Below, one piece after another: positions 1-17,147 of a stretch of DNA of 17,539 nucleotides (position 1 is its first letter; every line of letters starts with the position of its first letter). The notes below the pieces were generated by a model that saw only the letters and a list, made by a program, of their open reading frames with translations, made no database searches and was not told where the DNA came from. Origin of the DNA: an uncultured Methanosarcinaceae archaeon (GTDB lineage Archaea; Halobacteriota; Methanosarcinia; Methanosarcinales; Methanosarcinaceae); the NCBI GenBank assembly GCA_963721455.1, contig CAVRJG010000035.1, forward strand, positions 1 to 17,539, read 5' to 3'. The translations under genes were made by a program, and so were the position numbers.

Positions 1-202
1 AATACCTACGTACCTTCTTTTCTATTTCAGGAGAATATTCATGTACCCATCTCATGATTGTTGTATGATCGACTTTTATTCCTCTTTCTGCCATTATTTC
101 CTCTAAATTTTTATAATTCAATGCATATTTTAAGTACCATCTAACGTTTAATAAGATGATTTCTCCTGCAAAGTGTTTCCATTTAAAGGAATTTACTGGC
201 AT
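1..202 (-). CDS. IS6-family transposase, N-terminal 67 aa (partial, window edge)
   Basis: Hand translation from ATG at 202 gives MPVNSFKWKHFAGEIILLNVRWYLKYALNYKNLEEIMAERGIKVDHTTIMRWVHEYSPEIEKKVRRY, the typical IS6/IS26/IS240 N-terminus. Not in the ORF track. Confidence 0.93.
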   Translation of the reverse strand, partial: MPVNSFKWKHFAGEIILLNVRWYLKYALNYKNLEEIMAERGIKVDHTTIMRWVHEYSPEIEKKVRRY

Positions 203-267
203 AACATATACTCCTACATTTCTATTATTTCAGTAAATCCCTATCATAATTTTTTTGCAACGGAACC
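1..267 (-). mobile_element. IS6-family insertion sequence, left end (runs off the window)
   Basis: Terminal IR GGTTCCGTTGCAAAAAA (minus strand, tip at 267) is followed by an AGGAG RBS (211-215) and an IS6 transposase N-terminus. Confidence 0.92.
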
Positions 268-516
268 CTCAGATTTATTGTTTTTCCTCTTTTCCGGAAT
301 AGGATAATTTAGAGTCATTTTCTCCGTGTAAGTACAACTTCCAGACCAAATCCCATAGAATTTATATAGCTAACGATCAAAAGAAACAGACTTATTGGAT
401 TTATTCGATCAAAAGAATATTTGATATACATAATCAGAGACAAGTTTACAAGAATGTCAAATATTATCATTTACAAAGAAACGGATAAAACTTTCCTTCC
501 ATAGATAATAAATATA

Positions 517-604
517 GAGAATTTCGATGAACCTCTTATTTTAACACATTGCCTATAACCCATTATAAGCAACTATCCAATGATTGGAGTTTTTCGAAAT
601 CATT
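517..604 (+). repeat. ~88-bp MITE-like repeat (family C), copy 1
   Basis: Imperfect TIRs GAGAATTTCGATGAACC...GGAGTTTTTCGAAATC; collinear with 3470-3556, sharing an internal CATTATAA. Confidence 0.65.
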
Positions 605-615
605 TATATTTAATA

Positions 616-722
616 GGATTTACGCGTTTGAGGAATTAAATCAAGTGCAAGCAGATTGCCATTAATGTCATGATGACAGTTTGAAGTTTCCACTATTAAT
701 TTTCAAATAATCGCGTAAATTA
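616..722 (+). repeat. ~110-bp MITE-like repeat (family D), copy 1
   Basis: TIRs GGATTTACGCG...CGCGTAAAT; aligns with the reverse complement of 7546-7660. Confidence 0.65.
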
Positions 723-874
723 AATTTTATTATTTAAGTACCAGAATAACCCGAGTTGAGATAACTATATTCCTCTGCATTTATTTTTAGGAGTTTTTTG
801 GCAATCCATCCCATTTCCGGGCGAAGAACTCAAAATTCGAAAGTGCGATGAGGATATGAGCTATTACGGCAGGT

Positions 875-3433
875 ATGAAAAAAATGGAAACAACATTCGA
901 TCCAGAACATATAACTGGACTTTCAGAAGACGAGGCCACTAGAATACTTCAGATGGAAGGCTATAACGAGCTGCCTTCCCAAAAGAAACAGAGCCTTTTT
1001 TCCATCTTACTGAATGTTCTTAAAGAACCTATGTTGCTTCTTCTTTTAGGTGCAGGTCTGATTTATCTGTTCCTAGGGGAAGTAAAAGATGCGCTGATAT
1101 TATTGGTGTTCGTTTTTGTGGTCGTCGGTATAACATTTAACCAGGAGAGAAAAACCGAAAGGGCATTAGAGGCTTTGAGAGATCTCTCAAGCCCAAGGGC
1201 TCTTGTAATAAGAGACGGAGAACAGAAGAGAATTCCAGGGCGGGAAGTCGTTAAAGGCGACATATTGATTTTAAGAGAGGGAGACCGTATCCCGGCAGAT
1301 GGAGTTGTGCTTTCCTGTACTAATCTTCTGGTAGACGAATCTCTGCTCACAGGCGAATCCCTTTCAGTCAGAAAATCCGAATATGGTGGCTTAAGCCAGT
1401 CTATGTTGCCCAGGCAACCTGGAGGAGATGATCTTCCATTTGTGTATTCCGGGACACTGGTAGTTCAGGGCCATGGAGTATCCCAAGTAAGTTCAACAGG
1501 AATACACACTGAAATGGGCAAAATCGGAAAAGCTCTGGGAACTATTACAGAGGAAGACTCTCTGCTAAAGAAAGAGACCGCCCTAATTGTAAAGAATTTT
1601 GCTATTTTCGGAGGAATACTCTGTGTCCTTGTAGTTGTAATCTACGGACTAACCAGAGGAGATTGGCTGCACGGCGTGCTGGCAGGACTGAGTTTGAGCA
1701 TGGCCCTTCTCCCTGAAGAGTTTTCAGTGGTTTTGCTTATATTCCTGAGTATGGGTGCCTGGCGCCTGTCCAAAAGGAATGTTCTGGTACGGCGCATGCC
1801 CGCTATTGAGACACTTGGCTCTTCGACAGTGCTCTGCGTGGATAAAACAGGGACTTTGACACAGAACAGGATGAACTTAAGTTCCCTGTATGCAGGAAAT
1901 GAGAATTGTGAGATTGATAAAGATAAGTGCCTGTCTGAGAAGTTCCACGAACTACTCGAATTCGGCTACCTGGCAAGTCTGCAAGACCCCTTTGATCCGC
2001 TGGAGAAAGAGATCAAAAAAAGCACTGAAAAATTCCTTCCAGACCATGAGGACATACATCGTGAATGGAAACTTGTCCGGGAGTATCCTCTTTCTAAAAA
2101 TTTACTTGCACTCTCAAACGTGTGGGAATCTAACGACCACCGGAAACACGTTATCGCTGCAAAAGGCGCTCCGGAAGCTATTATCGATTTATGCCATCTC
2201 AATGAAGCAGAGAAAGATAAATTGCTGTCCCATGTCCAGGAGATGGCAAACAGAGGTCTGAGGCTTCTTGGTGTGGCTAAAGCCAGTTTTCAGGATGACT
2301 CTTTGCCTGAAAAACAGCATGAGTTCGAATTTGAATTTATAGGATTGCTTGGCTTTGTCGACCCTGTCCGGCCATCGGTTGCCCAATCGGTAAAGGAATG
2401 CTATACAGCCGGATTAAGAGTAATTATGATTACGGGGGATTATCCCGGTACAGCCCAGCATATCGCAAGACAGATCGGTTTAAAAGATCTGGATAAGTAC
2501 ATTACAGGCCCTGAGCTTGCTAAAATGAGTGAGAGTGAGCTTGCAGAGAAGATAAAAACAACAAATATTTTCGCCCGGGTTGTGCCTGAACAGAAACTAC
2601 TAATTGTAAATGCCTTAAAATTAAACGGTGAAGTTGTCGCAATGACAGGAGATGGGGTAAATGATGCTCCCGCCTTGAAATCAGCTCACATCGGGATTGC
2701 AATGGGGGAAAGAGGTACGGACGTGGCCCGCGAGTCTGCATCAATTGTCCTTCTAAACGATGATTTCTTTTCCATAGTTGCAGCTGTAAGGCTTGGGAGG
2801 CGGATTTTCGATAACCTCAAGAAAGCAATCAGTTACATATTTTCGGTCCACATGCCTATTGCAGGGCTTGCCCTGTTTCCCATATTGTTTGATTTGCCTC
2901 TGGTCCTTTTGCCTGCACACATAGCTTTCCTCGAGCTGATTATTGACCCTGCCTGTTCAACAGTCTTTGAGGCTGAACCTGAAGAGAAAAACATAATGAA
3001 CAGGCCGCCTCGAAATTTGCAGGAAAGAATGTTCGGAAGAAAAAACCTGGCTCTGAGCTTAGTGCAGGGAATAAGCATGCTTGCAGGAGTAATTGCTATT
3101 CTCGTGTATGCATTACACATGGGAAAGGGTGAAGACGAAGTACGCACACTTACTTTCGCCACTCTGGTAATTTCCAACCTTACTTTAATTGTGGCAAATC
3201 TTTCCTGGTCACAGAGCATGATAAAAACCCTGAAGTCAGAAAACAAAGCATTGAGATACGTGCTTTTAGGAACTCTTTCAGGCCTTCTTCTGGTTCTGTA
3301 TGTGCCGGCTTTGAGAAGTCTATTCCGCTTCTCACTGCTGCATGGTGACGACTTGTTGATCGTATTTGTTGTGGGAATTTTAAGTATTGCGTGGCTTAGA
3401 TTACTTAAAAGCAAAATAAACAATCATATCTAA
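875..3433 (+). CDS. Cation-translocating P-type ATPase (type II, Ca2+-ATPase-like)
   Basis: 852 aa with TGES, the DKTGTLT phosphorylation motif, KGAPE, TGD, GDGVNDAP and multiple TM helices. The M4 motif reads PEEF. The true start may be ATG 884. Confidence 0.95.
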   Translation: MKKMETTFDPEHITGLSEDEATRILQMEGYNELPSQKKQSLFSILLNVLKEPMLLLLLGAGLIYLFLGEVKDALILLVFVFVVVGITFNQERKTERALEALRDLSSPRALVIRDGEQKRIPGREVVKGDILILREGDRIPADGVVLSCTNLLVDESLLTGESLSVRKSEYGGLSQSMLPRQPGGDDLPFVYSGTLVVQGHGVSQVSSTGIHTEMGKIGKALGTITEEDSLLKKETALIVKNFAIFGGILCVLVVVIYGLTRGDWLHGVLAGLSLSMALLPEEFSVVLLIFLSMGAWRLSKRNVLVRRMPAIETLGSSTVLCVDKTGTLTQNRMNLSSLYAGNENCEIDKDKCLSEKFHELLEFGYLASLQDPFDPLEKEIKKSTEKFLPDHEDIHREWKLVREYPLSKNLLALSNVWESNDHRKHVIAAKGAPEAIIDLCHLNEAEKDKLLSHVQEMANRGLRLLGVAKASFQDDSLPEKQHEFEFEFIGLLGFVDPVRPSVAQSVKECYTAGLRVIMITGDYPGTAQHIARQIGLKDLDKYITGPELAKMSESELAEKIKTTNIFARVVPEQKLLIVNALKLNGEVVAMTGDGVNDAPALKSAHIGIAMGERGTDVARESASIVLLNDDFFSIVAAVRLGRRIFDNLKKAISYIFSVHMPIAGLALFPILFDLPLVLLPAHIAFLELIIDPACSTVFEAEPEEKNIMNRPPRNLQERMFGRKNLALSLVQGISMLAGVIAILVYALHMGKGEDEVRTLTFATLVISNLTLIVANLSWSQSMIKTLKSENKALRYVLLGTLSGLLLVLYVPALRSLFRFSLLHGDDLLIVFVVGILSIAWLRLLKSKINNHI

Positions 3434-3469
3434 AACAGCTAAGTTAACAATAAGGAGTATATTATTCAA

Positions 3470-3556
3470 GAGAATTTCGATAAACCCCTGAATTCAATAT
3501 TGTTTATGTATTCATTATAATCAATCGGCAAAATGTTGGGGTTTATTGAAATCCTC
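3470..3556 (+). repeat. 87-bp MITE-like repeat (family C), copy 2
   Basis: 19-bp TIRs GAGAATTTCGATAAACCCC / GGGGTTTATTGAAATCCTC (2 mismatches). Confidence 0.72.
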
Positions 3557-3592
3557 CCAAATATGAATTAAAAGAGCTACACACTGAATAAA

Positions 3593-3724
3593 TAAACTCT
3601 CCCAAAACCAATTTAATTATCAAGTTAGTGAAATATTGGAACCATTTTTACATACGATTCAAAACTCGATTGATTTTTCTGAAAAAGAGATTTAGAGGAG
3701 GATTTTGAGTTTTGAGATTACTCT
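3593..3724 (+). repeat. Degenerate copy of the 131-bp MITE (family E)
   Basis: TCCCAAAACC...AAACTCGATTG...GAGATTTA...ATTTTGAGTTTTGAGAT is collinear with 9841-9971. Confidence 0.6.
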
Positions 3725-3837
3725 CTCGATTCAAACCAATAGAGTAATCATATAGTAGTGGATGAGGAAAAACACTAGGCGAGACAATTTTGTTCAGCCA
3801 ATTATATAGGTAATATATATTTTAAAGAAGTGTTCAT

Positions 3838-4485
3838 ATGGAGAATATAAACTCTCTTATAAACTTTTTTTTGCATCTTGACATGCATTTAAGCGCAATA
3901 ATAAATGAATACGGTCTATTGACATATTTACTGTTGTTTGTCATTGTCTTTTGTGAGACCGGTCTGGTGATAACTCCTTTCTTACCGGGTGATTCTCTCA
4001 TCTTTGCAACTGGAGCTTTGGCAGCGCGCGGTTTGCTCAATTTATCAACTCTATTAATTATTCTGTGTATTGCAGCTATTGCAGGAGATACTGTCAATTA
4101 TCATATAGGTCATTTATTAAGAAACAAGATCGAAAATCATGACAATCTATGGTTTATTAAAAAGTGGCATCTTAATCGCACACAATCATTTTTTGAAAAA
4201 TATGGAGTAAAAACTATAATAATCGCCCGATTTGTTCCTATCGTCCGTACCTTTGCACCTTTCGTAGCAGGGGTAGGAACAATGCCTTATTCAACATTCA
4301 TTAGCTTCAATATCATTGGAGGAATTGTATGGGTAACGTCATTTCTTTTTGGAGGATACTTTTTCGGAAACTTGTCGGTTGTAAAGGATAACTTCAGCTT
4401 TGTAATAATTGGAATTATTTTTGTTTCAATACTTCCAAGTGTTATTACATATATTCAGAGCAAACGTGATCCAAAAAGTGCATGA
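3838..4485 (+). CDS. dedA: DedA family (SNARE-associated/VTT domain) membrane protein
   Basis: 215 aa with FCETGLVITPFLPGDSLIF, GDTVNY and ARFVPIVRTFAPFVAG signature motifs. Confidence 0.95.
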   Translation: MENINSLINFFLHLDMHLSAIINEYGLLTYLLLFVIVFCETGLVITPFLPGDSLIFATGALAARGLLNLSTLLIILCIAAIAGDTVNYHIGHLLRNKIENHDNLWFIKKWHLNRTQSFFEKYGVKTIIIARFVPIVRTFAPFVAGVGTMPYSTFISFNIIGGIVWVTSFLFGGYFFGNLSVVKDNFSFVIIGIIFVSILPSVITYIQSKRDPKSA

Positions 4486-4553
4486 TAAAGTTAGGCTGAG
4501 CGCATATCTCCAAATATTTGTCATCATTAAAAAGTTTTCAGGATTTATATATA

Positions 4554-4684
4554 GAGCCGGTCCCAAAACTCAAAATTTGCTTCTCTGAATCTCGTATTCT
4601 AATCAATCAATCATGTTTCCGGTCATGGAAAATAATTTTGAAACTCTTACTGATCGGGGACAAAATGGGTTTTGGGATAGGCTC
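4554..4684 (-). mobile_element. 131-bp MITE (family E) with 3-bp target duplication ATA
   Basis: TIRs GAGCCGGTCCCAAAAC / GTTTTGGGATAGGCTC, flanked by ATA on both sides (4551-4553, 4685-4687); inverted homolog of 9841-9971. Confidence 0.85.
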
Positions 4685-4722
4685 ATAGAGAACTTACAGG
4701 AGGACACCAGTCTGTAATAATG

Positions 4723-4913
4723 TTACTGGGTTCCTCCAGATAAGGCTTTCTGCCATGGGAAATCTGTTCTTAATGATTCGTTTTCAATCACCTGTTCTAC
4801 ATACCCCTTATCAACGTTAACGTCGGATGTGGAATTTGCATATAGATAGTTTCCACCGGCATTATTTGAAAGGCAGTTGTTTTCCAGAATGAAGGCATGG
4901 GTGTTGTTTAGCT
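4723..4913 (-). pseudogene. 3' remnant of a probable beta-helix/cell-surface protein gene, cut by an IS6 MITE
   Basis: NNTHAFILENNCLSNNAGGNYLYANSTSD resembles the Asn-rich parallel beta-helix C-termini of Methanosarcina surface proteins. The apparent start in the ORF track lies inside the MITE IR. Confidence 0.5.
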
Positions 4914-5021
4914 GGTTCCGTTGCAAAAATAATATTTCTGCAATTTGACACTATAATTTTCACCTTTATGTGCCATTTTCTTTCTAATGAAAATGATTAA
5001 CTTTCCTAATTGTGAAGGTTT
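4914..5021 (+). mobile_element. IS6-derived MITE subtype A, truncated (one end only)
   Basis: Begins GGTTCCGTTGCAAAAATAATATTTCTGC, is nearly identical to 13725 onward for ~108 bp, then diverges. Confidence 0.85.
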
Positions 5022-5039
5022 GTTGTCGAGTTGGTTTTT

Positions 5040-6047
5040 TCATTTTACAGGGACAATAATGTTTTTAAGGTCGGCCAACTCTTTTGTGTAACCTGCAAGC
5101 ATTAGATCGGTAAAGACCTGTATCATTTCTACATTTTGATTATTATTGCCTGATGTCAGGGCTGAAATATATGCTTCCCTAGATTCTTTTGGAATAATCA
5201 GTTGTGGATATCTTTCTTTTTTCAAAAGATAATTCAAAACTTCACGCCCAGTTCTTCCATTACCATCAGAAAAGGGATGGATCAATTCAAACTTGTAATG
5301 AAACAATATAGCCTGCTCGAAAGGATGCTTTTTATTTTTAATGGCATCATAATAGCTGTTAATTAGATCCTTCAAGTCTACCTCAATCATATTAGCAAGC
5401 GTAACGCTTAGATCACAACCACCTATATAGACAAGGTTGTGCCTTCTGAAAGTTCCCCGGCTCTCAAAACGCATGTCAATATTATTCATTATCAAAGAGT
5501 GCAATTTTCGAATAAACTGCAGATTTACTTTACCTTTGTACTTTTCCACATAAGCCTTTACATATTTGTAATTTTGAACCTCATTTATTTCTCTCAAAGA
5601 TTTTTCTTTTGGCACAATCTCTTCATTTAAGAGATAGTGTGTTTCCTGCAATGTCAATGTGTTTCCTTCTATTGCAGTAGTGCCATGGATATACAAATTT
5701 TCGTTTTGCTGTGTATAGACTTCAAGTTCTATTTTGTTGAGCGATGAAATGTATGAATTGTGTAGGAATCGAAGCTTCTCAATTTTCTTAATTTCTGATT
5801 GATTAAGATAATCTGCCGTGTAATAAGAATAAGCCATATCTGCTACTTTCTCGGCAGCTTTCAATTCAAGATCATAAGCATAGTCTCTAATGGCTTTTGC
5901 TAGGGCTTCAGAAGTAGGCTCAGTGGTGCCTAAATATTGTCTCACCCTGCTATTCTTTCCCTTAAATGAAATATAGCGTACCAGGAAATACTTAGGGGAT
6001 CTATTCTCGGACTTTTCTGATTCTAATTTATACCTTAAAGGTTCCAT
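5040..6047 (-). CDS. Fic family protein (AMP transferase) with N-terminal inhibitory motif (class II)
   Basis: Canonical HPFSDGNGRTGR motif and an upstream (S/T)xxxE(G/N) inhibitory motif TTAIEGN. Confidence 0.93.
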   Translation of the reverse strand: MEPLRYKLESEKSENRSPKYFLVRYISFKGKNSRVRQYLGTTEPTSEALAKAIRDYAYDLELKAAEKVADMAYSYYTADYLNQSEIKKIEKLRFLHNSYISSLNKIELEVYTQQNENLYIHGTTAIEGNTLTLQETHYLLNEEIVPKEKSLREINEVQNYKYVKAYVEKYKGKVNLQFIRKLHSLIMNNIDMRFESRGTFRRHNLVYIGGCDLSVTLANMIEVDLKDLINSYYDAIKNKKHPFEQAILFHYKFELIHPFSDGNGRTGREVLNYLLKKERYPQLIIPKESREAYISALTSGNNNQNVEMIQVFTDLMLAGYTKELADLKNIIVPVK

Positions 6048-6058
6048 GATGTTGAATA

Positions 6059-6104
6059 TGGGTGGCGTACAATTTTAGTCTTTTGGTATAAAACACGCCA
6101 CCCA
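6059..6104. promoter_or_regulatory. 10-bp perfect inverted repeat bracketing the putative Fic TATA box
   Basis: TGGGTGGCGT (6059-6068) - 26 bp - ACGCCACCCA (6095-6104); minus-strand TTTATA at 6087-6092. Confidence 0.5.
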
Positions 6105-6139
6105 AAACATAAGATGTAAGTTTTTGTTCTTTTCTGACA

Positions 6140-6246
6140 GCTACGTTTATTCATAAAACGTAGCCATTTCTTTGATTTTAAGCTAATTTTCTAGGCTAAT
6201 AACTAATATATAAGCTAAAAACAGCTACCTTTTAATATTTTGTAGC
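6140..6246 (+). other. Putative bipartite recombination/res-like site A
   Basis: GCTACGTTT-ATTCATA-AAACGTAGC (6140-6164) plus a 23-bp GCTAC...GTAGC (6224-6246) abutting the recombinase ATG; same geometry as 8868-8974. Confidence 0.6.
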
Positions 6247-6247
6247 T

Positions 6248-6827
6248 ATGATCTTCTTCATGGAAAATGGATTAGTTACTGCAGATGGAACCAAGGTCCT
6301 AACTGTAGAGGAATATAATAGGTTTATAAATGCCATTCCTGAATCAATGAAAGCTATTTTTGAGATTAACACAATAACAGGCCTTCGATACATCGAGCTT
6401 CAAAGACTCTATGAAAATCCTCAATGGTACTACAAAGAAAGAAATCAGATAATACTGCCTAAGGAAGCACAGAAAAAGGAAAAGCAAAAGCTCCCTAAAA
6501 GGACTATTGATAAATTGCCTTCAACTTTCTCTTACGTGTTTTCACATTTTATTGATGGTAAGAAACCACCTTATAGATTAAGTTGGAATAAGGATCTTGC
6601 CAGGTGGTCAGAGAAAGCAGAGATAAGCCCAAAAGTAGGAACAAAGACATCCAGGAAAACAATTGAAAGCTGGATGCTAAAAACAGGAGTTCCAGAGATT
6701 GAAATATATTCCAGACAAGGGACATGACCCCATAACATCTCTGAAGCATTACCAGAGCCTTTCCTTTACAGACTATGAGCTACGGGACATTAAGAAGAGA
6801 CTTACAGAATGGGGGATTTTAAAATGA
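6248..6827 (+). pseudogene. Small (~190 aa) catalytic-domain-only tyrosine recombinase with a +1 frameshift
   Basis: TGLRYIEL (Arg I) and KTSRKT (Arg II) are present. Removing one G from GGG at 6719-6721 gives RQGHDPITSLKHYQSLSFTDYELRDIKKRLTEWGILK* (His and catalytic Tyr), stop at 6825-6827. The paralog at 13020-13195 reads through this point in frame. Confidence 0.85.
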
Positions 6828-7093
6828 GTAGTCTTCTTCTTGCATACCAAGAAGTGTTGAACGGCGTTGAGCTCGAAAACCTGCCTTTGAAGGAATCCGC
6901 AAAAGATAAAATCAGGAAATTTCGACCATTCGAAGCGCTGACAGGTATGTTGTATTCAGACGTCGCACAAAACGCGGGCTTAAAAAAGACAACAGTTAGA
7001 GGGTTTTCAAAGGTGTACATGGCCCACAAAAACAATAAAACTATGGTTCGAAAGAATGGAGTATACATAATTGTGAGCAATGTGGAGGTTTAA
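6824..7093 (+). CDS. Hypothetical 89-aa basic protein, possible HTH DNA-binding protein, coupled to the recombinase
   Basis: ATG at 6824 overlaps the corrected recombinase stop (ATGA). YSDVAQNAGLKKTTVRGF is HTH-like. Confidence 0.6.
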   Translation: MSSLLLAYQEVLNGVELENLPLKESAKDKIRKFRPFEALTGMLYSDVAQNAGLKKTTVRGFSKVYMAHKNNKTMVRKNGVYIIVSNVEV

Positions 7094-7098
7094 TCCCA

Positions 7099-7398
7099 AT
7101 CGCAGAATCAAATTTAGTTTTAAGACACCCTCTAAGGTATTTTAGTTTTGGGATCAATATGCTGTGATTATTTTCCCCAAAAAGCGCAGAGTGGACAGGG
7201 CTTACAACGGGCAGTGAGGTTTCGTTTCTACTTAACGCAGATAACAAACTCAGGATGGTTCAAGGCGATGCGGATAATGGAAATGAATCTTCCAGTGTGA
7301 CACTGCCATCCAAACGACACAACAATTTCGGCGACATAGACCAAAACGACACTATGAAATCAACTGTCAATTTTTTTTCGCTTTCGTCTATAAGTTAA
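7099..7398 (+). pseudogene. Possible degraded AbrB/MazE-like small DNA-binding gene
   Basis: GGAGGT RBS (7084-7089) is followed by ATC instead of ATG. The frame reads AESNLVLRHPLRYFSFGINML*LFSPKSAEWTGLTTGSEVSFLLNADNKLRMV with one internal TGA (7165). The resemblance is by eye only. Confidence 0.3.
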
Positions 7399-7510
7399 TT
7401 ATATGGGGACGAACGGTTCGGTGTCGTCGTCGTTCTAGGGCATTTGCTTCACAAGCGACGCTGATTCATTAATAAATTGAGTGTCGTTTTAGGGGTTTTT
7501 CGTGTCGTTG
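7312..7510. repeat. Convergent array of ACGACAC motifs around an AT-rich core
   Basis: ACGACAC at 7314 and 7346, variant GCGACAT at 7331; reverse GTGTCGT at 7421, 7481 and 7502. Confidence 0.65.
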
Positions 7511-7545
7511 ATTAGCTTGAAATACGGTGTTATTTTACAATTATA

Positions 7546-7660
7546 AGATTTACGCAGTTGAAATGAAAAATCAATAGTGTTGAACCTTTATCTGTCCAAA
7601 ATGAAAATTTAAACCACAGTGTTTATCGTACTTAATTTTGTACCTCAATCGCATAAGTCC
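7546..7660 (-). mobile_element. 115-bp MITE-like repeat (family D), copy 2
   Basis: TIRs AGATTTACGC / GCATAAGTCC, flanked by TATA on both sides; inverted homolog of 616-722. Confidence 0.7.
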
Positions 7661-8010
7661 TATAAATATTATTTTTATTCACCTCAAAACAGTGAAGATC
7701 CATAAAATGAATTTAATTTAGGCTCAGTTAGATATAAACTAATTTTTCAGTTTACTTCCTGTCGGCTGATACCTTGGTACCATACTGTTTGACCAATAAT
7801 TACCCAGATTCATTTCTGATGTATTATTGGTTGATTCTGCTTCATTTATATGCCGATGAAAGCAACTTTAAATTAACATTGAAGGGAATTATATCCAGAA
7901 TATATAATATCTAAAGAAATATAAATCAGAAACCAATATTAATTAAAGACCGATGTTATATAGTCTACTTCTCCAGATATATTCTCTAATTGGGGTCTGG
8001 CAACAATTTG

Positions 8011-8255
8011 GGTTCTGGTGCAAAAAAAGGTTCCGTTGCAAAAAATCGGCTTTTTCACAAAATCAGTAAAACCCATCACAATTCGGAAAGTTAACCATTT
8101 TTATTCGGGAGAAAATGATACATAAAGGTGAAAATTATAGTGTCAAATTGCAGAAATATTTTTTTGCAACGAAACCTCAAATTGGGGTTAAAATAACATT
8201 TAAAGGAAATAATAATAGCCTCAAAGTACAAAAAAATTATTTTTGCAACGGAACC
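8011..8255 (+). mobile_element. Nested IS6-derived MITEs: 18-bp IR stub, complete subtype A (8029-8176) and right part of subtype B (8177-8255)
   Basis: Four IS6-type ends with tips at 8011, 8029, 8176 and 8255. 8029-8176 aligns with 12228-12377, and ~8190-8255 aligns with the end of 12872-13019. Confidence 0.85.
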
Positions 8256-8508
8256 ATATTTCATTATTAATCAGTCCTCGGTGGCCTTAAAAGTCCTACA
8301 GCTGTAATGATCCAGACAAATACATTGGTTTTACTGTAAAACCGATCCATTTTTCCAATTCAGCGACAACATGCCTACATTCTTGAATATGCGAAATCAT
8401 TTCAGGATACAACACTAAATAGAAAGGGGAAAATAATAGGCCAGAAAACGTTACATTTAGAATTTGATTGATCCAGCAAATTACATTTGAAATGGGGAGT
8501 TAATAGAG

Positions 8509-8754
8509 ATGTATACGTTAGAAGCTATGGAAATTGAAATACTTACTCATCTGTATGAATTGGGGATACTTAGTCTATATGGGGGTTGGGAAAGGCAATC
8601 AAATTTAGATAAAAATGCAGTTGAGAGATTATACCGTGCTAAACTTGTGGAAAAAAATATTTCATCACCTGGATTTATACGTTTGTCAGAACGTGGCGTT
8701 GGCACAGTGTTATTTGGGTTCTATAATGCAGAAAAAATTACAGAGCTATTATAA
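8509..8754 (+). CDS. Hypothetical 81-aa protein, winged-helix-like
   Basis: GGGGAG RBS upstream; AVERLYRAKLVEK...FIRLSERG resembles a wHTH recognition helix plus wing. Confidence 0.6.
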   Translation: MYTLEAMEIEILTHLYELGILSLYGGWERQSNLDKNAVERLYRAKLVEKNISSPGFIRLSERGVGTVLFGFYNAEKITELL

Positions 8755-8867
8755 ATTTTGGAAGGGATTGAACACATTCGGCAATGTAACAAAAGTTCTG
8801 TTAATATAAGAGGGTGAAAAGTCACTGGCTATGGTAACAAAGTTCCTGTTTTTCTATTTCATTAATG

Positions 8868-8974
8868 CATAGGTTTTGTGCTAAAACCTATGTATATTCT
8901 CCAGTATTCCTGGCAATTTGGCGCTGGAATTGGAAAAAACGAGCTAAAATACATAGGTTTTATGAAAATCAATG
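8868..8974 (+). other. Putative bipartite recombination/res-like site B (orphan)
   Basis: CATAGGTTT-TGTGCTA-AAACCTATG (8868-8892) plus a 23-bp CATAGGTTTTATGAAAATCAATG (8952-8974); same 84-bp offset as site A. Confidence 0.55.
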
Positions 8975-9201
8975 TAGAAAGTAGGCGGGCATCTGGTCTA
9001 TAAGCACATCGGGAAGAGGAAGGTTATAGCAGACAGGCCAGAAAATCCCGCATGATAACTATTACCTCTGCATTCAGTTAATTCCTGTCGAAAAACATGT
9101 CAGAAGCTACAAACAGGTCAGAAAAATTCAGTAATTTTCCTACAAAACAACTGCATTCCGATGTGCCTGCAACCGACTTCTTAAAAGTCTAAACGAGCCG
9201 T

Positions 9202-9420
9202 TCATTCATTCGGCCGATGTTTTCCATGTCGTTGAAGACCAAAGTATATGAGTGTGAGTGTGCCTGCTGCGATTGTTAAGCCTATGATTATGTACATTAC
9301 GTCGTTTTCGGTCACACTGTAATATTGCCGGACAACTTTTATAAATTTATTCTTCTGTTTGGCATGCTTGCAGGTATGGCTCCGGACTGTATACTTGCCG
9401 TCTTTACATCATGGCAGCAT
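9202..9420 (-). pseudogene. Possible small basic membrane-anchored protein gene with a premature stop
   Basis: Hand translation: MLP*CKDGKYTVRSHTCKHAKQKNKFIKVVRQYYSVTENDVMYIIIGLTIAAGTLTLIYFGLQRHGKHRPNE*, with one clear hydrophobic helix. Its upstream region is replaced by an IS6 end. Confidence 0.35.
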
Positions 9421-9424
9421 TTTG

Positions 9425-9482
9425 GGTTCAGTTGCAAAAAATTCAAAATAAGCAAATAAATCTATGAATAATGAATTAAAAG
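9425..9482 (-). mobile_element. Solo IS6 right-end fragment
   Basis: GGTTCAGTTGCAAAAAATTCAAAA...TAAATCTAT...TAATGAAT matches the reverse complement of the IS6 right end at ~17481-17538, not the MITE interiors. Confidence 0.8.
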
Positions 9483-9840
9483 CTCTCCGAGATAGTTTAA
9501 ATTCTGAAATGCCTGAAAATAGGGTGTATGTTTCTTGAAATTATTTTGTATTTGATAGGACACTTATCGAAGGTAAAAATACCAATGTCGAAATATCAAG
9601 GCTATTGCTAACGATTTTTAAAATATTGTCTATAGTCTTTAGAATAGTTGTAAACAAATATACATAGACACGTTTAACCGATAGCGTTTATTTTTGTTGA
9701 GTGAACAAAATTAGAGAAAAATCCCGGTTTAATTTGTCATTTTTTACGACTTCCTTAAAACCCATTTTTCCATAGGAAACGAAGGTAAACCCCGGACTTG
9801 TTTATAAGTGAATGTTACGAATTATTTTATTTTTCATACT

Positions 9841-9971
9841 GAGCCTATCCCAAAACCTACTTTTATTCTCAATTATCAGAATTATTCAGGATTTATTTCA
9901 TGATCAGAAACTCGGTTGGTCACTCAAATACGAGATCTAAATAAGCAAATTTTGAGTTTTGGGATCAGCTC
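9841..9971 (+). mobile_element. 131-bp MITE (family E) with 3-bp target duplication ACT
   Basis: TIRs GAGCCTATCCCAAAAC / GTTTTGGGATCAGCTC, with ACT at 9838-9840 and 9972-9974. Confidence 0.85.
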
Positions 9972-10167
9972 ACTAATAATGTTATTGAGTTATTGCAATA
10001 TTCCCAGGTGAATTTTTCAGGATTTAGTCTAATTTTTGATCTGGTTACCTGAACTAATACGCACTTATAAAAAAGCCTCTCTAAAGGGCTCAGAATCGTT
10101 CAGTCTCTTGTTATCGTTTTTACTGACATATTACTATAAGTAACGCCATGTAGTTAATTATATATAC

Positions 10168-10449
10168 ATGGAACGCCTTTTAGTAAATAGAGAAAGAACA
10201 ATGAGCGCAACAAAGTTGAGAATGGGAACAGCACAGAAACAAAATATCAGTGTTCAGCATGCATACTTTTACAAGCACGGCGGAAGAAGAACACAAAGAC
10301 CTACTCCAATGAACTTTAAAGAATGGCTCCGGGCTGGAATGGATCACTACAAAAAAGGATATGGTTTTACCTATGAGCTTGTAACCCCTAGCTTTGAGGA
10401 TAAACAGACCAGGGCAGGAAAGCTTGTTAAGAACTTGTGCAAATTTTAG
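10168..10449 (+). CDS. Hypothetical basic protein (start may be ATG 10201)
   Basis: 93-aa ORF, first of four co-directional ORFs, followed by a hairpin and T-tract. Confidence 0.55.
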   Translation: MERLLVNRERTMSATKLRMGTAQKQNISVQHAYFYKHGGRRTQRPTPMNFKEWLRAGMDHYKKGYGFTYELVTPSFEDKQTRAGKLVKNLCKF

Positions 10450-10500
10450 AGAGGAATACGAAACCGAATACCTCTCTAAGTTCTAACTTCTTTCTTTTCC
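10446..10500 (+). terminator. Hairpin plus pyrimidine tract, putative terminator
   Basis: TTAGAGAGG (10446-10454) / CCTCTCTAA (10471-10479), followed by TTCTTTCTTTTCC. Confidence 0.45.
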
Positions 10501-10550
10501 GAAAGTGGTATATGTTGCGCTCCGCTTTAGAACAGATAAGAGGCTAACCA

Positions 10551-10781
10551 ATGACTGAAACAAAAAAGCGAAGACAGGGACAGATTAAACCGGATGGTAA
10601 ACAGGCAGCCCCTAAACCGATTTGTAAGAAATGCGGTGAAATCATGATCCGCGCATACATAAGAGGAAGTGCAGAACGGAAGCGGGCTTATATTGGCTCA
10701 GGCTGGATGTGTCCCTCTTCTATCTGTGATTGCATTGTTAAAGACTTTGTAGAGCTGGGAGATCTGGAAGACGAGGCTTAA
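10551..10781 (+). CDS. Small zinc-ribbon-like protein
   Basis: GAGG RBS; CKKC...WMCPSSICDC cysteine pattern, basic N-terminus and acidic tail. Confidence 0.7.
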   Translation: MTETKKRRQGQIKPDGKQAAPKPICKKCGEIMIRAYIRGSAERKRAYIGSGWMCPSSICDCIVKDFVELGDLEDEA

Positions 10782-10783
10782 AT

Positions 10784-11074
10784 ATGGACATTGATACAGC
10801 AAAGAAACTAAACGAGGCATTAAAACCGCTTGGCTACACTGTGGGAAGGATATTCCTTGAAATGGGACAGTATGAAGCGGCAATTGAAATTGCTAAAAGT
10901 GATTTAAAGTACTCAGATTTGACGAATGATGAATACCAAAAGAAAAATGAGAAGATCAAATCACTTGAAGACGAATTTAGAGAAATCACCTGGACCGGAA
11001 ACAGAGACTTACCTCAGTCAACATTTCATTATAGAGACATATTAAAGAAGTTGGAAGGAGAGCCGGAGGAATAA
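10784..11074 (+). CDS. Hypothetical protein
   Basis: 96-aa ORF starting 2 bp after the previous stop, with a GAGG RBS. Confidence 0.7.
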   Translation: MDIDTAKKLNEALKPLGYTVGRIFLEMGQYEAAIEIAKSDLKYSDLTNDEYQKKNEKIKSLEDEFREITWTGNRDLPQSTFHYRDILKKLEGEPEE

Positions 11075-12871: not shown

Positions 12872-13019
12872 GGTTCTGTTGCAAAAAATCTAGCTGTTTT
12901 ACCAAACCAGTGAAAAACATCATAATTGGGATATTAAGATGTCATAAGCAGGTCAATAATAACACAAAAAAAGTTATTATAGCCTAAAAGGGTAGAAAAA
13001 TTATTTTTGCAACAGAACC
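12872..13019 (+). mobile_element. IS6-derived MITE subtype B, complete (148 bp), no TSD
   Basis: Perfect TIRs GGTTCTGTTGCAAAAA / TTTTTGCAACAGAACC; the interior aligns with the reverse complement of 14708-14856. Confidence 0.9.
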
Positions 13020-13195
13020 CCATAGAGAGCTGGATACTAAAGATTGGAATACCAGAGATTGAAATCTATTCCAGACAATGTCATGACCCTATAACATCTC
13101 TAAAGCATTACCAGAGCCTTTCTTTTACAGATTACGAAATGAGGGATATAGAAAAGAGACTCATAGAATGGGGAATTCTTAGAAGGGTAATTTAA
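13020..13195 (+). pseudogene. C-terminal remnant of a second small tyrosine recombinase
   Basis: IESWILKIGIPEIEIYSRQCHDPITSLKHYQSLSFTDYEMRDIEKRLIEWGIL is nearly identical to the 6662-6827 region; the 5' part is removed exactly at the MITE tip. Confidence 0.85.
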
Positions 13196-13284
13196 CTGTT
13201 TATGACCATTCCTACGGTAATATAAAATAGAATTGCAACAAATATTTAATGAAAAACATGTGAAAACTAGGCTTGGAGTCGACC

Positions 13285-13500
13285 ATGAGACAATTTCTCG
13301 TAGCTATAACAAAAGAAGATGACTTCTTTATTGCAAGATGTCCTGAACTCAATGTGACTTCTCAGGGTGAGACCCTTGAAAATGCAGAAAAAAATATTAA
13401 AGAAGCTATAGAACTATATATTGAGAGCTTTGGGACTGAGGACCTTCCGCAACATGTTTCCAAACCTTATCTGACCCTTGTGGAAGTTGCCCATGTCTAA
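13285..13500 (+). CDS. hicB: HicB family antitoxin (short form, no C-terminal DNA-binding domain)
   Basis: FIARCPELNVTSQGETLENAEKNIKEAIELYIE is the HicB/UPF0150 pattern; GGAG RBS precedes ATG 13285. Confidence 0.9.
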   Translation: MRQFLVAITKEDDFFIARCPELNVTSQGETLENAEKNIKEAIELYIESFGTEDLPQHVSKPYLTLVEVAHV

Positions 13501-13720
13501 ATTACCAGTTGTATCTGGAAAAGAACTTCTAAATGCATTAGAAAAGGCTGGATTTATTGTTGTGAGGCAAAAAGGAAGTCACGTGTCACTTCAAAAAATC
13601 ACTGATGAAGGAACTTACAGAACAATTGTTCCTTTACATACAAGACTTGCTAAAGGGACACTTCTTGATATTCTTCATCAAACTGGCTTAAGCAAGGAAG
13701 AATTAATAGATTTACTCTAA
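13493..13720 (+). CDS. hicA: HicA family toxin (mRNA interferase)
   Basis: MSKLPVVSGKELLNALEKAGFIVVRQKGSHV...VPLH...KGTL with the catalytic GSH motif; overlaps hicB by 8 bp. Confidence 0.92.
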   Translation: MSKLPVVSGKELLNALEKAGFIVVRQKGSHVSLQKITDEGTYRTIVPLHTRLAKGTLLDILHQTGLSKEELIDLL

Positions 13721-13724
13721 ATAT

Positions 13725-13938
13725 GATTCCGTTGCAAAAATAATATTTCTGCAATTTGACACTATAATTTTCACCTTTATGTGTCATTTTCTTCCTAATG
13801 AAAATGATTAACTTTCCTAATTGTGAAGATTTTCACTGATTTTGTAAAAAAGCCAGATTTTTTGCAATGGAACCATTTTTGCACCAGAACCAGAATTATA
13901 GTGTCAAACTACGGAAATGTTATTTTTGCACCACAACC
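13725..13938. mobile_element. IS6-derived MITE cluster: complete subtype A (13725-13874), 17-bp IR stub (13875-13891) and subtype A terminal fragment (13892-13938)
   Basis: Ends GATTCCGTTGCAAAAA, TTTTTGCAATGGAACC, TTTTTGCACCAGAACC and TTTTTGCACCACAACC. Confidence 0.85.
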
Positions 13939-14148: not shown

Positions 14149-14439
14149 ATGATACAAATGGATCCGATGGATAAAATCTTTGGAAAAACCGCACAGATGA
14201 CAGTCCTTAAGAACCTGATCGAAAAACAGAACGAACCAACCTACCTTTCAGGAATAGCTGAGGAAACTGGATTGTCCCACTCGAGCGTATCAAGGGTTAT
14301 CACCCCTCTGATCGCGTCAGGTATTGTCATAGAAAAACCACTCGGAAAAAATATCAGAACTTTCCAGCTAAATATAGAAAGTGAAGCAACAAATGCGATA
14401 GTTGATTTTTACAACAAAATCAACCAGATAATAGATTAG
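14149..14439 (+). CDS. Winged helix-turn-helix transcriptional regulator (ArsR/MarR-like)
   Basis: TYLSGIAEETGLSHSSVSRVITPLIASGIVIEKPLGKNIRTFQLN. The start may be 14158. Confidence 0.85.
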   Translation: MIQMDPMDKIFGKTAQMTVLKNLIEKQNEPTYLSGIAEETGLSHSSVSRVITPLIASGIVIEKPLGKNIRTFQLNIESEATNAIVDFYNKINQIID

Positions 14440-14600: not shown

Positions 14601-14856
14601 GGTTCTGATGCAAAAAATCTGCCTTTGTTGAAAAATCAGTGAAAAACTTCACAATTAGGAACGTTAATCATTCCTATCACCGGGAAAATGGTACACAAAG
14701 ATAGAATGGTTCCGTTGCAAAAATAATTTTACTGCCTTTTTAGGCTATAACTATTGCTTTTTGTATCATTATTGACCTGTTTATGGCATATAAATATCCA
14801 ATTTGTGATGTTTTTCACTGGTTTTGTAAAATAACCAGATTTTTTGCACCAGAACC
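14601..14856. mobile_element. IS6-derived MITEs: truncated subtype A (14601-14707) and complete subtype B (14708-14856)
   Basis: Ends GGTTCTGATGCAAAAA (14601), GGTTCCGTTGCAAAAA (14708) and TTTTTGCACCAGAACC (14856). Confidence 0.87.
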
Positions 14857-15036: not shown

Positions 15037-17147
15037 GTTGAATAGGAAGGAAAGATTACTCTTTCCCTCCCTTCCAGGAACGAACCGTGCGACTTTCACC
15101 GCAGTTCGCTCGCGCATTTCACAACCCTATAGGGCGGCTTTAAACGAAAAATGGAAGTCTGGTTTGAATCCATGGTGTCTGCCTTTTGATACGCTTCTTT
15201 CTGTCTAGGAAATAGTTTCTATCCAAGTAAGGATTGGCATCAAGTTTAGGCATTGCATGTCGACGGATTTGGGCATCTGAAAAATTTAGAAGTTTGGTCA
15301 CCTTGGTTCGGAATACCCAGTTTCTGTTACCTTCAGAATACCAATATTTGCTTGCAATCCATTTATGACCTTTATTAGGATGTCTCCGTTTTCCCCATTG
15401 CCAAGTGACTTCCCATAAATAGAAATCAAGTTTCATGAACGTATTCTTAGCCGCTATGTGGCGATGATAATTTGTCCATCCCTTAATTATCGGGTTAAGA
15501 GTTTTGATAAGTTCATCCTGGGTCCATGCTTTAGCCTTACTAACAATAGTCTTGAGCTTCTGAGTGATCGATTTAATTGACTTAGGAGATGGCTTAGTCA
15601 GAAGTATTCCTTTGTATTTGCGGAAGTTCCATCCAAGAAAGTCAAAACCATCGTCAATGTGAGTAATTAATGTTTTTTCAGGAGAAAGTTCAAGACCCCT
15701 AATTGCCAGAAAGTCACGGATGATTTCACATACTTCTTCTGCTATTTTCTTTGATGGAGCAGTGACCAGAAAATCATCTGCGTAGCGGATAAAGTGTACT
15801 TTCTGTCTAGGAAAACGATCATCTAAAGCCTTTTCGATCCCATCTAATGTCATGTTGGCAAGGATGGGAGAGATAATGTTCCCCTGAGGTGTACCATTAT
15901 CAGTATGGTAGAATATACCATTAGAAATGAAACCTGATTTCAGAAATTGAGACAGTATTGATCTGTCCATTGGAATATTATTTTTGAGCCAGGAATGAGC
16001 AATGTTGTCGAAGCATCCTTTTATATCTCCTTCCAAGATCCATTGACTTGATGTCTTTCTCCAAAGGCATGTGAATGCATATGTTGATGCATCTTGTGCA
16101 CACTTAAAAAGACGAAAACCGAACGAACGAGGATCGGCAGTAGTTTCTGCTACAGGCTGAAGAGCTAGAGCATAAAGTGCCTGCATAGCTCGATCATTCA
16201 TGGTCGGTATGGAGATCGGACGTTTGGTGGATTTTCCTGGTTTAGGGATATAGATACGACGTAATGGAGATGCTCGGTACTGTTGATCAGTGAGACTGAG
16301 TACTGCACGCATCTTGTCAGACGCAGCAGTCCAGAGCTGACCGTCGACACCCGCAGTTCGTTTTCCATGGTTTTGTGTAATAATACGCACTGCAAGTAAT
16401 TTAGCAGAGTGCGAATGGATCAGCAGGTATGTGAGCCTTTTAACCAGATTCCAGTTTTCGTTGTGTGTTGCCTTTGCAATCCGGGTCTGTAGCCTGTTAA
16501 CTCGAAATTTAATTTCTTCCCAGTCGATGGAACTCCATTGACGGAAAAGATTCCGGTCAGTACGCTTCTCGCTATAGGGCGTAGTTGAATCTCGCACTTT
16601 CACTGGTATACCTCCCTTTTTTGCCGTGAAACACCTGTTTCAAGTCAGCGCCTTTTCAGGCTAAGGTATAAGCCTCTATCCTGTCCATTACAGGCAGGCG
16701 TTCGCTTTTTGAAACATCCTCTTCCGTCTACACCATTTGTAGGTCTTGTGACTTCCATACCTCTTTTAGAGGAGCGCATACGGGTTACCAAGTTCCGTAT
16801 CAGAGATACTTTTGACGCTTTAGGAGCCATCTTTAGACCGAGAATCGCTTTGTCCGTTTGCCATCCTGTAGTTATACCAGAATAGCCGGATTCCATGCCA
16901 TTTTGGCTCAAGTGTATCACCCTGTTTTCACTTGTCTATCATTACGATCCTTGCAATGATTCAGCGTTTGCTTCTCCATGACGTCTTTTCTCTTGCAGAT
17001 TGAATAGATCAGGGTTCTATTCTTCTCCACGTTGTCTTGTGGGCTTCACACCCTCCCGTTAACCAGGAACGCATGCCACAATAGAGACACCCTAAACGGA
17101 TAGGGGACGGTTTGACCCGTAATCTTAGATACAACTTCTTGTCGCAC
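15037..17147 (-). mobile_element. Group II intron (2111 bp), probably IIB/chloroplast-like lineage
   Basis: 5' end GTGCGACAAG at 17147 and 3' end CCTATTCAAC at 15037. Domain V is GAGCGAACTGCGGTGAAAGTCGCACGGTTCGTTC (15078-15111; AGC triad, GAAA loop). Domain VI is a hairpin with a bulged A. Precise removal restores the transposase frame. Confidence 0.95.
15140..16603 (-). CDS. ltrA: Group II intron reverse transcriptase/maturase lacking an HNH endonuclease domain
   Basis: GTG start with AGGAG RBS; RT motifs EGDIKGCFD, GTPQG, RYADD and GFDFLG; maturase X domain (LNPIIKGWTNY). The ORF ends shortly after DANPYLD with no HNH. Confidence 0.95.
   Translation of the reverse strand: MKVRDSTTPYSEKRTDRNLFRQWSSIDWEEIKFRVNRLQTRIAKATHNENWNLVKRLTYLLIHSHSAKLLAVRIITQNHGKRTAGVDGQLWTAASDKMRAVLSLTDQQYRASPLRRIYIPKPGKSTKRPISIPTMNDRAMQALYALALQPVAETTADPRSFGFRLFKCAQDASTYAFTCLWRKTSSQWILEGDIKGCFDNIAHSWLKNNIPMDRSILSQFLKSGFISNGIFYHTDNGTPQGNIISPILANMTLDGIEKALDDRFPRQKVHFIRYADDFLVTAPSKKIAEEVCEIIRDFLAIRGLELSPEKTLITHIDDGFDFLGWNFRKYKGILLTKPSPKSIKSITQKLKTIVSKAKAWTQDELIKTLNPIIKGWTNYHRHIAAKNTFMKLDFYLWEVTWQWGKRRHPNKGHKWIASKYWYSEGNRNWVFRTKVTKLLNFSDAQIRRHAMPKLDANPYLDRNYFLDRKKRIKRQTPWIQTRLPFFV

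Follow-up and report, generated by a model that had tools for sequence, protein, structure and literature searches.

A small tyrosine recombinase gene of Methanosarcina with two palindromic sites upstream: a candidate self-contained recombination module

We analysed a stretch of archaeal DNA of 17,539 bp (hereafter the window), which is the complete contig C35 of a 3.94-Mb genome that is assembled in 73 contigs and is 98.5% complete. Loci related to the window come from Methanosarcina, and the window is a Methanosarcina contig. It carries a gene for a small tyrosine recombinase, preceded by two palindromic sites that we call distal and proximal with respect to the gene. We propose, with a probability of roughly 0.6, that the distal site is a crossover site and that the proximal site is an accessory site or operator overlapping the recombinase promoter, so that gene and sites would form a self-contained module, much as in the TnpI/IRS system of Tn4430. 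It is important to emphasize that all of the evidence for the function of the module is comparative. A reading of the window made from its sequence (the original prediction) had already proposed a family of compact recombinase modules with diversified, possibly orthogonal specificities, and its interpretation as a whole is partly supported by our results. In the following, labels with C are contigs of the window's genome, labels with L are loci of the family (L001 being the one on C34), and labels with X are read runs. The features of the window are collected in Table 1.

Table 1. Positions of the recombinase module, of the other family sites and of associated genes in the window
Feature	Position	Strand	Description
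Conserved module (distal site, promoter region, recombinase gene, orf94)	6139..7088	+	Delimited by blastn and contig breaks
Distal site A	6140..6164	.	GCTACGTTT-ATTCATA-AAACGTAGC; perfect 9-7-9 palindrome with GCTAC arms; proposed crossover core
Proximal site A'	6224..6246	.	GCTAC/GTAGC arms around TATA-like centre CTTTTAATATTTT; proposed accessory site or operator
Tyrosine recombinase, catalytic domain only	6248..6827	+	Frameshifted by a 1-nt insertion near 6719; probable true start 6260
orf94, small helical protein, optional accessory gene	6809..7093	+	Start overlaps the end of the recombinase gene
Third family site	8323..8347	.	CATTG-GTTTTA-ctg-TAAAAC-CGATC; perfect core, arms mismatched with each other
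Distal site B	8868..8892	.	CATAGGTTT-TGTGCTA-AAACCTATG; CATAG arms, 10-5-10, orphan
Proximal site B'	8952..8974	.	CATAGGTTTT-ATG-AAAATCAATG; no recombinase gene after B'
Fourth, weaker family site	9129..9153	.	CAGTA-ATTTTC-cta-CAAAAC-AACTG
Recombinase C-terminal fragment, CGAAC family	13007..13195	+	92% to L018
Overlapping HicB-like and HicA toxin-antitoxin pair	13273-13720		Pfam; a short way 3' of the recombinase C-terminal fragment

The window contains two such pairs of sites, A with A' and B with B'. The original prediction described both distal sites as perfect 9-7-9 inverted repeats; this is correct for A, but B pairs one base further inward and is really a 10-5-10 repeat. The coordinates given for a second site with the same arm downstream of A and of B were verified, each proximal site starting exactly 84 bp past the start of its own distal site, and so was the presence of AGCTAAAA before both proximal sites (at 6213-6220 and 8942-8949). 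Proximal site A' is palindromic in its outer 5-7 bp only (GCTAC...GTAGC). The third and fourth family sites had gone unnoticed; the CAGTA arm type of the fourth is also present on C3, C49, C44 and C53. The general form of a distal site in this family is arm5-S-TTTTA-NNN-TAAAA-S-arm5.

It might be thought that palindromes of this kind arise by chance in AT-rich DNA, that they are hairpins in RNA (a terminator or a small RNA), or that they belong to a miniature inverted-repeat transposable element (MITE). Perfect 9-bp inverted repeats are indeed not rare in the window: with a spacer of up to 12 there are four pairs at three places, compared with a mean of 1.76 in 300 Markov shuffles of the window, 17.7% of which have at least four such pairs. 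High-copy MITE-like families are also common around the sites. However, the expected number of pairs with a spacer of exactly 7 is 0.12 per window, and an arm repeated at +84 with at most one mismatch was found for 0 of 529 shuffled repeats. The occurrence of two such 84-bp arrangements in the window is therefore not chance. Two random 9-mers of the window are alike to within one mismatch with a probability of ~3e-4. In addition, sites whose two arms differ (see below) lose the pairing yet keep core and position, no Rfam match was found in 5900-9600, and the genome contains two further copies of region A and one further copy of region B. The last count also disposes of the possibility, named in the original prediction as one that would undermine it, that B is part of an unrelated MITE. 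We consider hairpins, chance and MITEs hardly credible as explanations, all the more as the arrangement is rare in shuffles of homologous loci, as follows.

In the 140 bp upstream of 48 homologues, the same two-site layout is present with differing arms. The arm types are GCTAC, GCAAC/ACAAC, CGAAC, ACAAT, AGTAC, CCAAC, CATAG, ATCAG and CAGAG. In three families, and relative to position 6248 of the window, the distal site starts at -107 to -110 and the proximal site at -23 to -25; the CCAAC family has its proximal palindrome 12 bp farther from the gene, with the distal palindrome at -139 to -157. A strict automatic test found the pair in 15 of 50 loci, versus 5 of 1000 shuffles, and a relaxed test found it in 18 of 50 loci, versus 7 of 1000. 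Spacings between paired sites in these tests were 83-86 bp, with the exception of one at 92 and one at 103. We also searched for an identical half-site (arm+N+TTT) at an offset of 82-88 bp; 15 of the 50 loci have one, as do 7 of the 18 that were added later, the control being 0-3 in each of 11 other offset windows. The later set comprised 20 loci from other genomes, other genera included, two of which duplicated earlier contigs and left 18. In the loci from other genera (38-48% identity), the layout is seen by eye in most, at ~84-86 bp, with further arm types such as TTGTCG, CCTGTYA, CACAG and CCCATA. Nothing recognisable as paired sites was seen in L017, L031, L032, L041, L045, L055 and L056. 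The expectation that the geometry recurs upstream of homologues is upheld by 18 of the 50 loci and 7 of the 18 fetched later.

The arm sequence was also expected to vary with the protein clade, and it does. On a maximum-likelihood tree of 45 proteins, the arm types CCAAC (10 rows), CGAAC (7), GCTAC (4) and ATCAG (3) each occupy one clade and require one change each. All nine arm labels together require 10 changes, versus a mean of 30.1 when labels are shuffled, and 0 of 200 shuffles needed as few. A stronger point than the tree is that the four half-sites of one locus share one arm and change together between clades.

The protein itself has the features of a tyrosine recombinase. Across 27 aligned family members, R47, K77/K79, K133, R136, H159 and Y168 do not vary. 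K133 occupies the usual place of the first catalytic histidine, and the spacings of 23 between R136 and H159 and of 9 between H159 and Y168 match those in XerD. Only ~45 residues of the 192-residue protein precede the box I arginine, and there is therefore no N-terminal DNA-binding domain. The AlphaFold2 (AF2) model has a predicted local distance difference test score (pLDDT) of 86.9, and Foldseek matches it with probability 1.0 to XerH (5jjv), XerA (5hxy), Tn1549 Int and the isolated catalytic domain of HP1 integrase; the integron integrase 2a3v is one among many equal structural matches. The frameshift-shortened open reading frame (ORF) of the window matches Pfam PF00589 (Phage_integrase) at 24.2 bits (E 3.2e-5), just under the cut-off of 27.1, and a precomputed PF00589 match is recorded for nearly all of the 120 homologues listed.

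In the window, the ORF at 6248-6727 extends as far as 6827 in a different frame. The shift comes after residue 158, ahead of H159 and Y168, and the reading frame of the window is consequently not intact. The extra base at 6719 is missing from all contigs covering this position in runs X1, X3 and X19, and an intact copy of 192 residues, 98% identical to the window's recombinase, is present on C34. Because of the frameshift, module A of the window is, to judge by its reading frame, dead as a gene. The copy on C34 presents the opposite situation, in that the gene is intact but a MITE of ~124 bp lies between its two sites, whereas the window has kept the geometry and has a frameshifted gene. The arms of site A are also kept on C34, and its spacer is changed. 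The C34 MITE (9684-9801, locus L001) has the terminal inverted repeats GGACTTACGCA/TGCGTAAGTCC, lies in the TA-rich stretch between the sites, is related to window positions 7540-7664, and widens the site spacing from 84 to 208 bp. A further difference is that the 86 bp at 7094-7179, directly after orf94, are missing from the C34 copy, which is otherwise 97-98% identical.

A homologue of orf94 follows the recombinase gene in the window, in all 3 listed GCTAC loci and in 2 of 9 CCAAC loci, and an orf94-like gene was found in 0 of 7 CGAAC loci, in 0 of 3 GCAAC loci, and in none of the other families, the distant clade or the plasmids. Its AF2 model has a pLDDT of 79 and no significant match in the PDB (the best is an ArsR repressor, E 0.33), and the protein has no Pfam or NCBIfam match. 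The recombinase is the sole gene common to all modules, and no regulator gene is shared.

The position of the proximal site relative to the gene suggests a link to transcription. The original prediction had placed the end of site A 1 bp before the first ATG of the recombinase gene, but the site in that position, with its end 1 bp ahead of the ATG at 6248, is the proximal one. Moreover, this adjacency is not a conserved feature, as the ATG at 6248 is present in the window, C34 and L005 only. The start that is kept, in 25 of 34 near-clade loci as counted by eye, is the second ATG, at 6260. In the near clade, the constant TATA-like centre of the proximal site (CTTTTAATATTTT/TTTTAATATTT) lies 25 nt before this conserved ATG, and the sequence between the two is not conserved. 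In archaea, 25 nt is the usual distance from the TATA box to the start. We therefore infer that the proximal centre is a TATA box giving rise to a leaderless or near-leaderless transcript, with the arms on the side of the flanking B recognition element (BRE). In RNA run X19, assembled contigs cover 6280-6787 and 6862-7311. Because the proximal site brackets this TATA-like promoter centre, a role as operator appears at least as well grounded for it as a resolvase-style accessory role.

The question arises whether both palindromes might be operators and nothing else. They would then control the promoter of the recombinase gene, and perhaps that of the divergent Fic gene, through binding of the recombinase or another regulator, while recombination, if there is any, would occur at other places. 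Such a role would account for the arms that bracket a TATA-like centre whose distance to the start codon is constant, and for copies of the region that lack a recombinase gene and lie upstream of other genes (C72 and L057). A comparable element also precedes the Fic gene. A perfect 9-bp inverted repeat, GGGTGGCGT...ACGCCACCC with a 26-nt spacer, is located upstream of that gene (6060-6103), and its spacer (6069-6094) holds a TATA-like centre with its own, unrelated arms, TAC(A/C)-ATTTTA.TCTTTT-GGTA. Homology with the copy of the Fic gene on C49 ends inside this repeat. However, an operator pair does not explain why the distal site has the form of a tyrosine recombinase core and marks the limit of conservation. 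Nor does it explain the existence of mixed-arm sites and of sites that flank modules, or the at least 12 single family palindromes in the window's genome that lie far from any such promoter. The lack of a regulator gene common to all modules is a further difficulty. We therefore regard a purely regulatory role for both sites as rather unlikely.

One indication of recombination comes from the boundaries of homology. Synteny breakpoints had been expected within the 7-bp spacer, and conservation does break off at or inside the distal site. Among 294 pairs of loci that we compared, homology reaches the distal site in 53. It ends within 3 bp of the left edge of the site in 16 of these pairs, inside the site in 14, and 4-60 bp beyond it in the remaining 23, with none extending more than 60 bp. 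With the loci closest to the window, blastn homology begins at 6139 (L005, L006), 6143 (L035), 6153 (L007) or 6156 (L036), and its right end falls at 6997-7089. In two runs of one study, metagenome contigs are broken at 6137|6139, and contigs diverge at 7088|7089.

A second indication is that some sites combine arms of two families. Mixed-arm sites occur in L007, L013, L023, L035, L040 and L063, and the proximal site on C72 is GCTAC|GCAAC. Sites with arms of different families suggest an exchange of DNA between these families. Among mixed-arm distal sites, those of L013, L019, L023 and L063 and, as judged by eye, those of L007 and L035 have their cognate arm on the side of the gene. These mixed sites (L007, L013, L023, L035, L063 and the proximal site on C72) do not favor the orthogonal specificities that had been suggested for the families. 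In L035, the module is flanked by a CCAAC|GCTAC site and a GCTAC|GCAAC site. Its right flank is a widespread region with a ydjM-like gene, which at six other places again begins with the right half-site. The right half-site thus travels with a homologous right flank in 7 genomes, and the left half and left flank differ.

Sites can also be clustered. L057 and L035 lie on one contig of a metagenome-assembled genome (positions 1-10858), which holds at least six family sites with different arm types in 10.9 kb. Counting sites with at most one core mismatch, there are 6, versus ~0.8 expected from the genome-wide number of 290 per 3.94 Mb. Between the sites of this island are unannotated ORFs, including ones of 257 aa and 523 aa and several small ones. 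In L011 (M. spelaei) the recombinase gene has a site on either side, the two being separated by 805 bp, and three sites are present in L035. The core TTTTA-NNN-TAAAA alone is no commoner than in Markov sequence (290 in 3.94 Mb versus 174 in 2 Mb), and only palindromic arms add signal (8 perfect-arm sites versus 1 in 2 Mb of Markov sequence). A dictionary of arm half-sites was uninformative, because the background is ~1 per kb.

These clusters raise the possibility that integration and excision, or the exchange of modules, is the main role of the system. The sites would be att-like or pdif-like junctions for small circles or plasmids, traffic through them would build mosaic islands, and resolution would be secondary. 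The density of sites on the 10.9-kb contig, the gene between two sites in L011, the three sites of L035, and the conserved right half-site with variable left partner beside the ydjM-like gene would all be expected on this explanation. However, each of the two plasmids that were scanned carries one site only. A circular junction or a matched empty site was not found, and the left flank of L035 is unique to its own genome. A single back-joint from 7131 to 6166, in run X2, has a depth of 2.3, with 2 letters between its sides and no site, and was not taken as a circle junction. Lastly, the right end of the module is ragged, carrying a site in L035 only and not in the window. We consider it unlikely that integration or exchange is the principal function.

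The missing circle junction or empty site and the ragged right end also weigh against our own proposal of a crossover site in a self-contained module, as do several other observations. For the window, L005, L006, C72 and the solo copy of L057, homology stops at the edge of the complete palindrome, left arm included; a central crossover would leave such an edge only where its partner site carried identical arms. The three central bases vary from site to site, whereas classical tyrosine recombinases depend on overlap regions that are identical. In L046 and L050 the polarity is reversed, with the left arm being cognate as judged by eye. The left flanks of hybrid sites have a weak affinity to the supposed donor family, namely 71-72% versus a background of 60-69%. 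The automatic tests are positive in 30-39% of loci only, and many sites are degenerate. The tree test alone is no proof of co-evolution, because gene and site are inherited together. Finally, the arm-flanked TATA-like centre before the Fic gene means that arm-flanked promoters may be a general operator design here.

The original prediction held B to be the orphan of a sister element, and this agrees with our results. The CATAG arms and 84-bp layout of B are also present in L051, L053 and L076, which form a sister clade with ~47% identity, and the gene of this clade was not found in the window's 98.5%-complete genome. The sole other copy of region B, on C44, is 96% identical and likewise lacks the recombinase gene. 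Since there is no gene of the matching clade in the genome and none beside the other copy, B is, on this comparative evidence, an orphan site pair of the sister clade that has lost its gene. A-type regions without a recombinase gene occur as well, on C72 and in L057, each upstream of an unrelated gene.

Given these observations, we suggest the following mechanism. Across Methanosarcinaceae, the module would consist of a catalytic-domain recombinase of ~190 residues and a cis region of ~107 bp directly upstream, and recombinase subunits would bind all four half-sites. The distal palindrome, arm-S-TTTTA-NNN-TAAAA-S-arm, would be the core at which strands are cut and exchanged. The proximal pair may clamp the TATA/BRE region of the recombinase's own promoter and so repress transcription, and it may help to build a defined synapse, as DR1 and DR2 do for TnpI. 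For plasmid copies, with one gene and one site, the most likely job would be the resolution of multimers, and chromosomal copies would be integrated or exchanged remnants.

We found 237 clusters of proteins homologous to the recombinase. Of the 59 Methanosarcina species genomes that we searched, 51 have 1-7 matches to the gene, and stop codons interrupt many of these; in an order-level sample, the gene is present in 24 of the 151 genomes and in 8 of the 23 genera. Five plasmid records were matched, all of them Methanosarcina plasmids with one gene each. The two plasmids that were scanned in full have one convincing site each, beside the recombinase gene. The plasmid of M. barkeri 227 has an annotated ParA besides the recombinase. 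One gene and one site per scanned plasmid, in at least one case together with ParA, fits multimer resolution. A search of a phage collection gave no match to the recombinase. Plasmid pC2A, for which a 20-bp perfect inverted repeat directly after the ssrA gene is reported (PMC9569500), was not among the records matched by the recombinase search. Close homologues are also found on short contigs in bins assigned to Clostridia, Proteiniphilum, Patescibacteria, Prolixibacteraceae or Cloacimonadota (L017, L028, L031-L033, L038, L039 and L045, at 66-76% identity, with 47% for L045). These are probably mis-binned Methanosarcina DNA rather than cases of transfer.

The remainder of the window has several further features. 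MITE-like repeats of 100-150 bp belonging to high-copy families are located at 4914-5021, 8029-8176, 13727-13874 and 14601-14856; these families have dozens of copies genome-wide, many on small contigs. A third perfect 9-bp inverted repeat, GTTGATTTT-TACAAC-AAAATCAAC at 14401-14424, is unrelated to the recombinase sites and sits at the 3' end of an ORF for a MarR-like winged-helix protein (14149-14439). An ORF of 487 aa on the reverse strand (15140-16603) resembles, by eye, a group II intron reverse transcriptase. It is enclosed by the remnant of an IS240-type DDE transposase, the halves of which match both ends of the contig (17112-17453 and 2-202). The P-type ATPase gene at 875-3433 has a paralogue on C53 that is 89% identical.

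A broader hypothesis is that Methanosarcinaceae have an element-encoded counterpart of pdif and integron cassette exchange, in which minimal recombinases swap modules at dispersed 11-3-11 sites. There may be a dozen or more specificities, each with an arm that can be read from the recombinase's own promoter region, and mosaic islands may be the result. We advance this idea tentatively, as one possibility. If it is true, archaeal genetics would gain a naturally occurring set of small recombinase/site pairs, each with its own specificity. More generally, these genes are annotated merely as "tyrosine-type recombinase/integrase", and full-text searches, together with term searches inside papers on tyrosine recombinases, gave no published description of this family's sites, supplementary files not being covered. 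As the cognate arm can be read upstream of each gene, the family offers many natural enzyme/site pairs, with which one could ask how DNA is recognized by a catalytic domain on its own and how this recognition changes. The family may also furnish compact recombination tools for methanogens, and the module presents a concrete hypothesis for plasmid maintenance and the mosaicism of islands in Methanosarcina.

We compared the module with known systems. FimB and FimE are tyrosine recombinases of ~200 aa that lack an N-terminal domain and act beside a promoter, and the recombinase studied here resembles them in size, in the lack of this domain and in its place next to a promoter. This likeness, and the promoter-like stretch between inverted repeats, might suggest an invertible switch in which the ~59 bp between the palindromes flip. 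However, the GCTAC-family loci that were compared all agree in the orientation of this segment, no strand-changing joint was found there in four runs, and the TATA-like centre is inside the proximal site and not between the sites. A loop of 59 bp is also very short for a synapse. With no sign of inversion in the GCTAC loci or the four runs, a difference from FimB/FimE, we judge such a switch very improbable.

With XerA/dif and the single-recombinase Xer systems, the module shares the catalytic fold and a palindromic core site. Unlike these, the Methanosarcina genes are not two-domain, are multi-copy and often decayed, and lie on plasmids or mobile islands instead of being a single housekeeping gene. 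The NCBIfam XerA equivalog model scores 21.4 bits versus a cut-off of 220, with profile positions 94-257 of 263 aligned. Cre/loxP of P1 and ResD/rfsF of F resolve low-copy plasmids and have their site next to the gene. The scanned plasmids are similar in having one recombinase gene and one adjacent palindromic site each, with ParA on the M. barkeri 227 plasmid; they differ in their enzyme of ~190 aa without a core-binding domain, the extra pair that overlaps the promoter, and the many arm variants.

In the pdif modules of Acinetobacter plasmids, short recombinase sites are reported to bound discrete gene modules (PMC6449649, PMC13141974). The island arrays, whose sites may likewise bound modules, and the site halves that are inherited with different neighbours recall pdif modules and integron cassettes. 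The recombinase is, however, element-encoded here and host-encoded XerCD there, and the two scanned Methanosarcina plasmids have single sites, with the arrays and the linkage of half-sites to flanks found in chromosomal islands. The likeness to integrons ends with the protein of 192 aa and with sites that are simple palindromes at the DNA level and not attC-like folded structures; we do not class the module as an integron.

The closest known architecture is that of TnpI/IRS of Tn4430, where a region of 116 bp contains a core inverted pair and two accessory motifs that share one recognition sequence. TnpI is a two-domain protein, and the IRS is located directly upstream of its gene. Differences are that the accessory motifs of TnpI are direct repeats, whereas the accessory pair here is inverted and brackets a TATA-like centre, that the TnpI core has arms of 14 bp and a spacer of 4 bp, and that the enzyme here lacks an N-terminal domain and belongs to an archaeal host. 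In addition, no Tn3-type transposase is linked to the module, the IS240-type DDE fragment being the only transposase among the 16 window ORFs scanned against Pfam. Despite these differences, both systems have four motifs with one recognition sequence, in a cis region of ~110 bp beside the gene (116 there, 107 here), that are divided into the inverted pair of a crossover core, as we propose it for the distal site, and a second, accessory pair.

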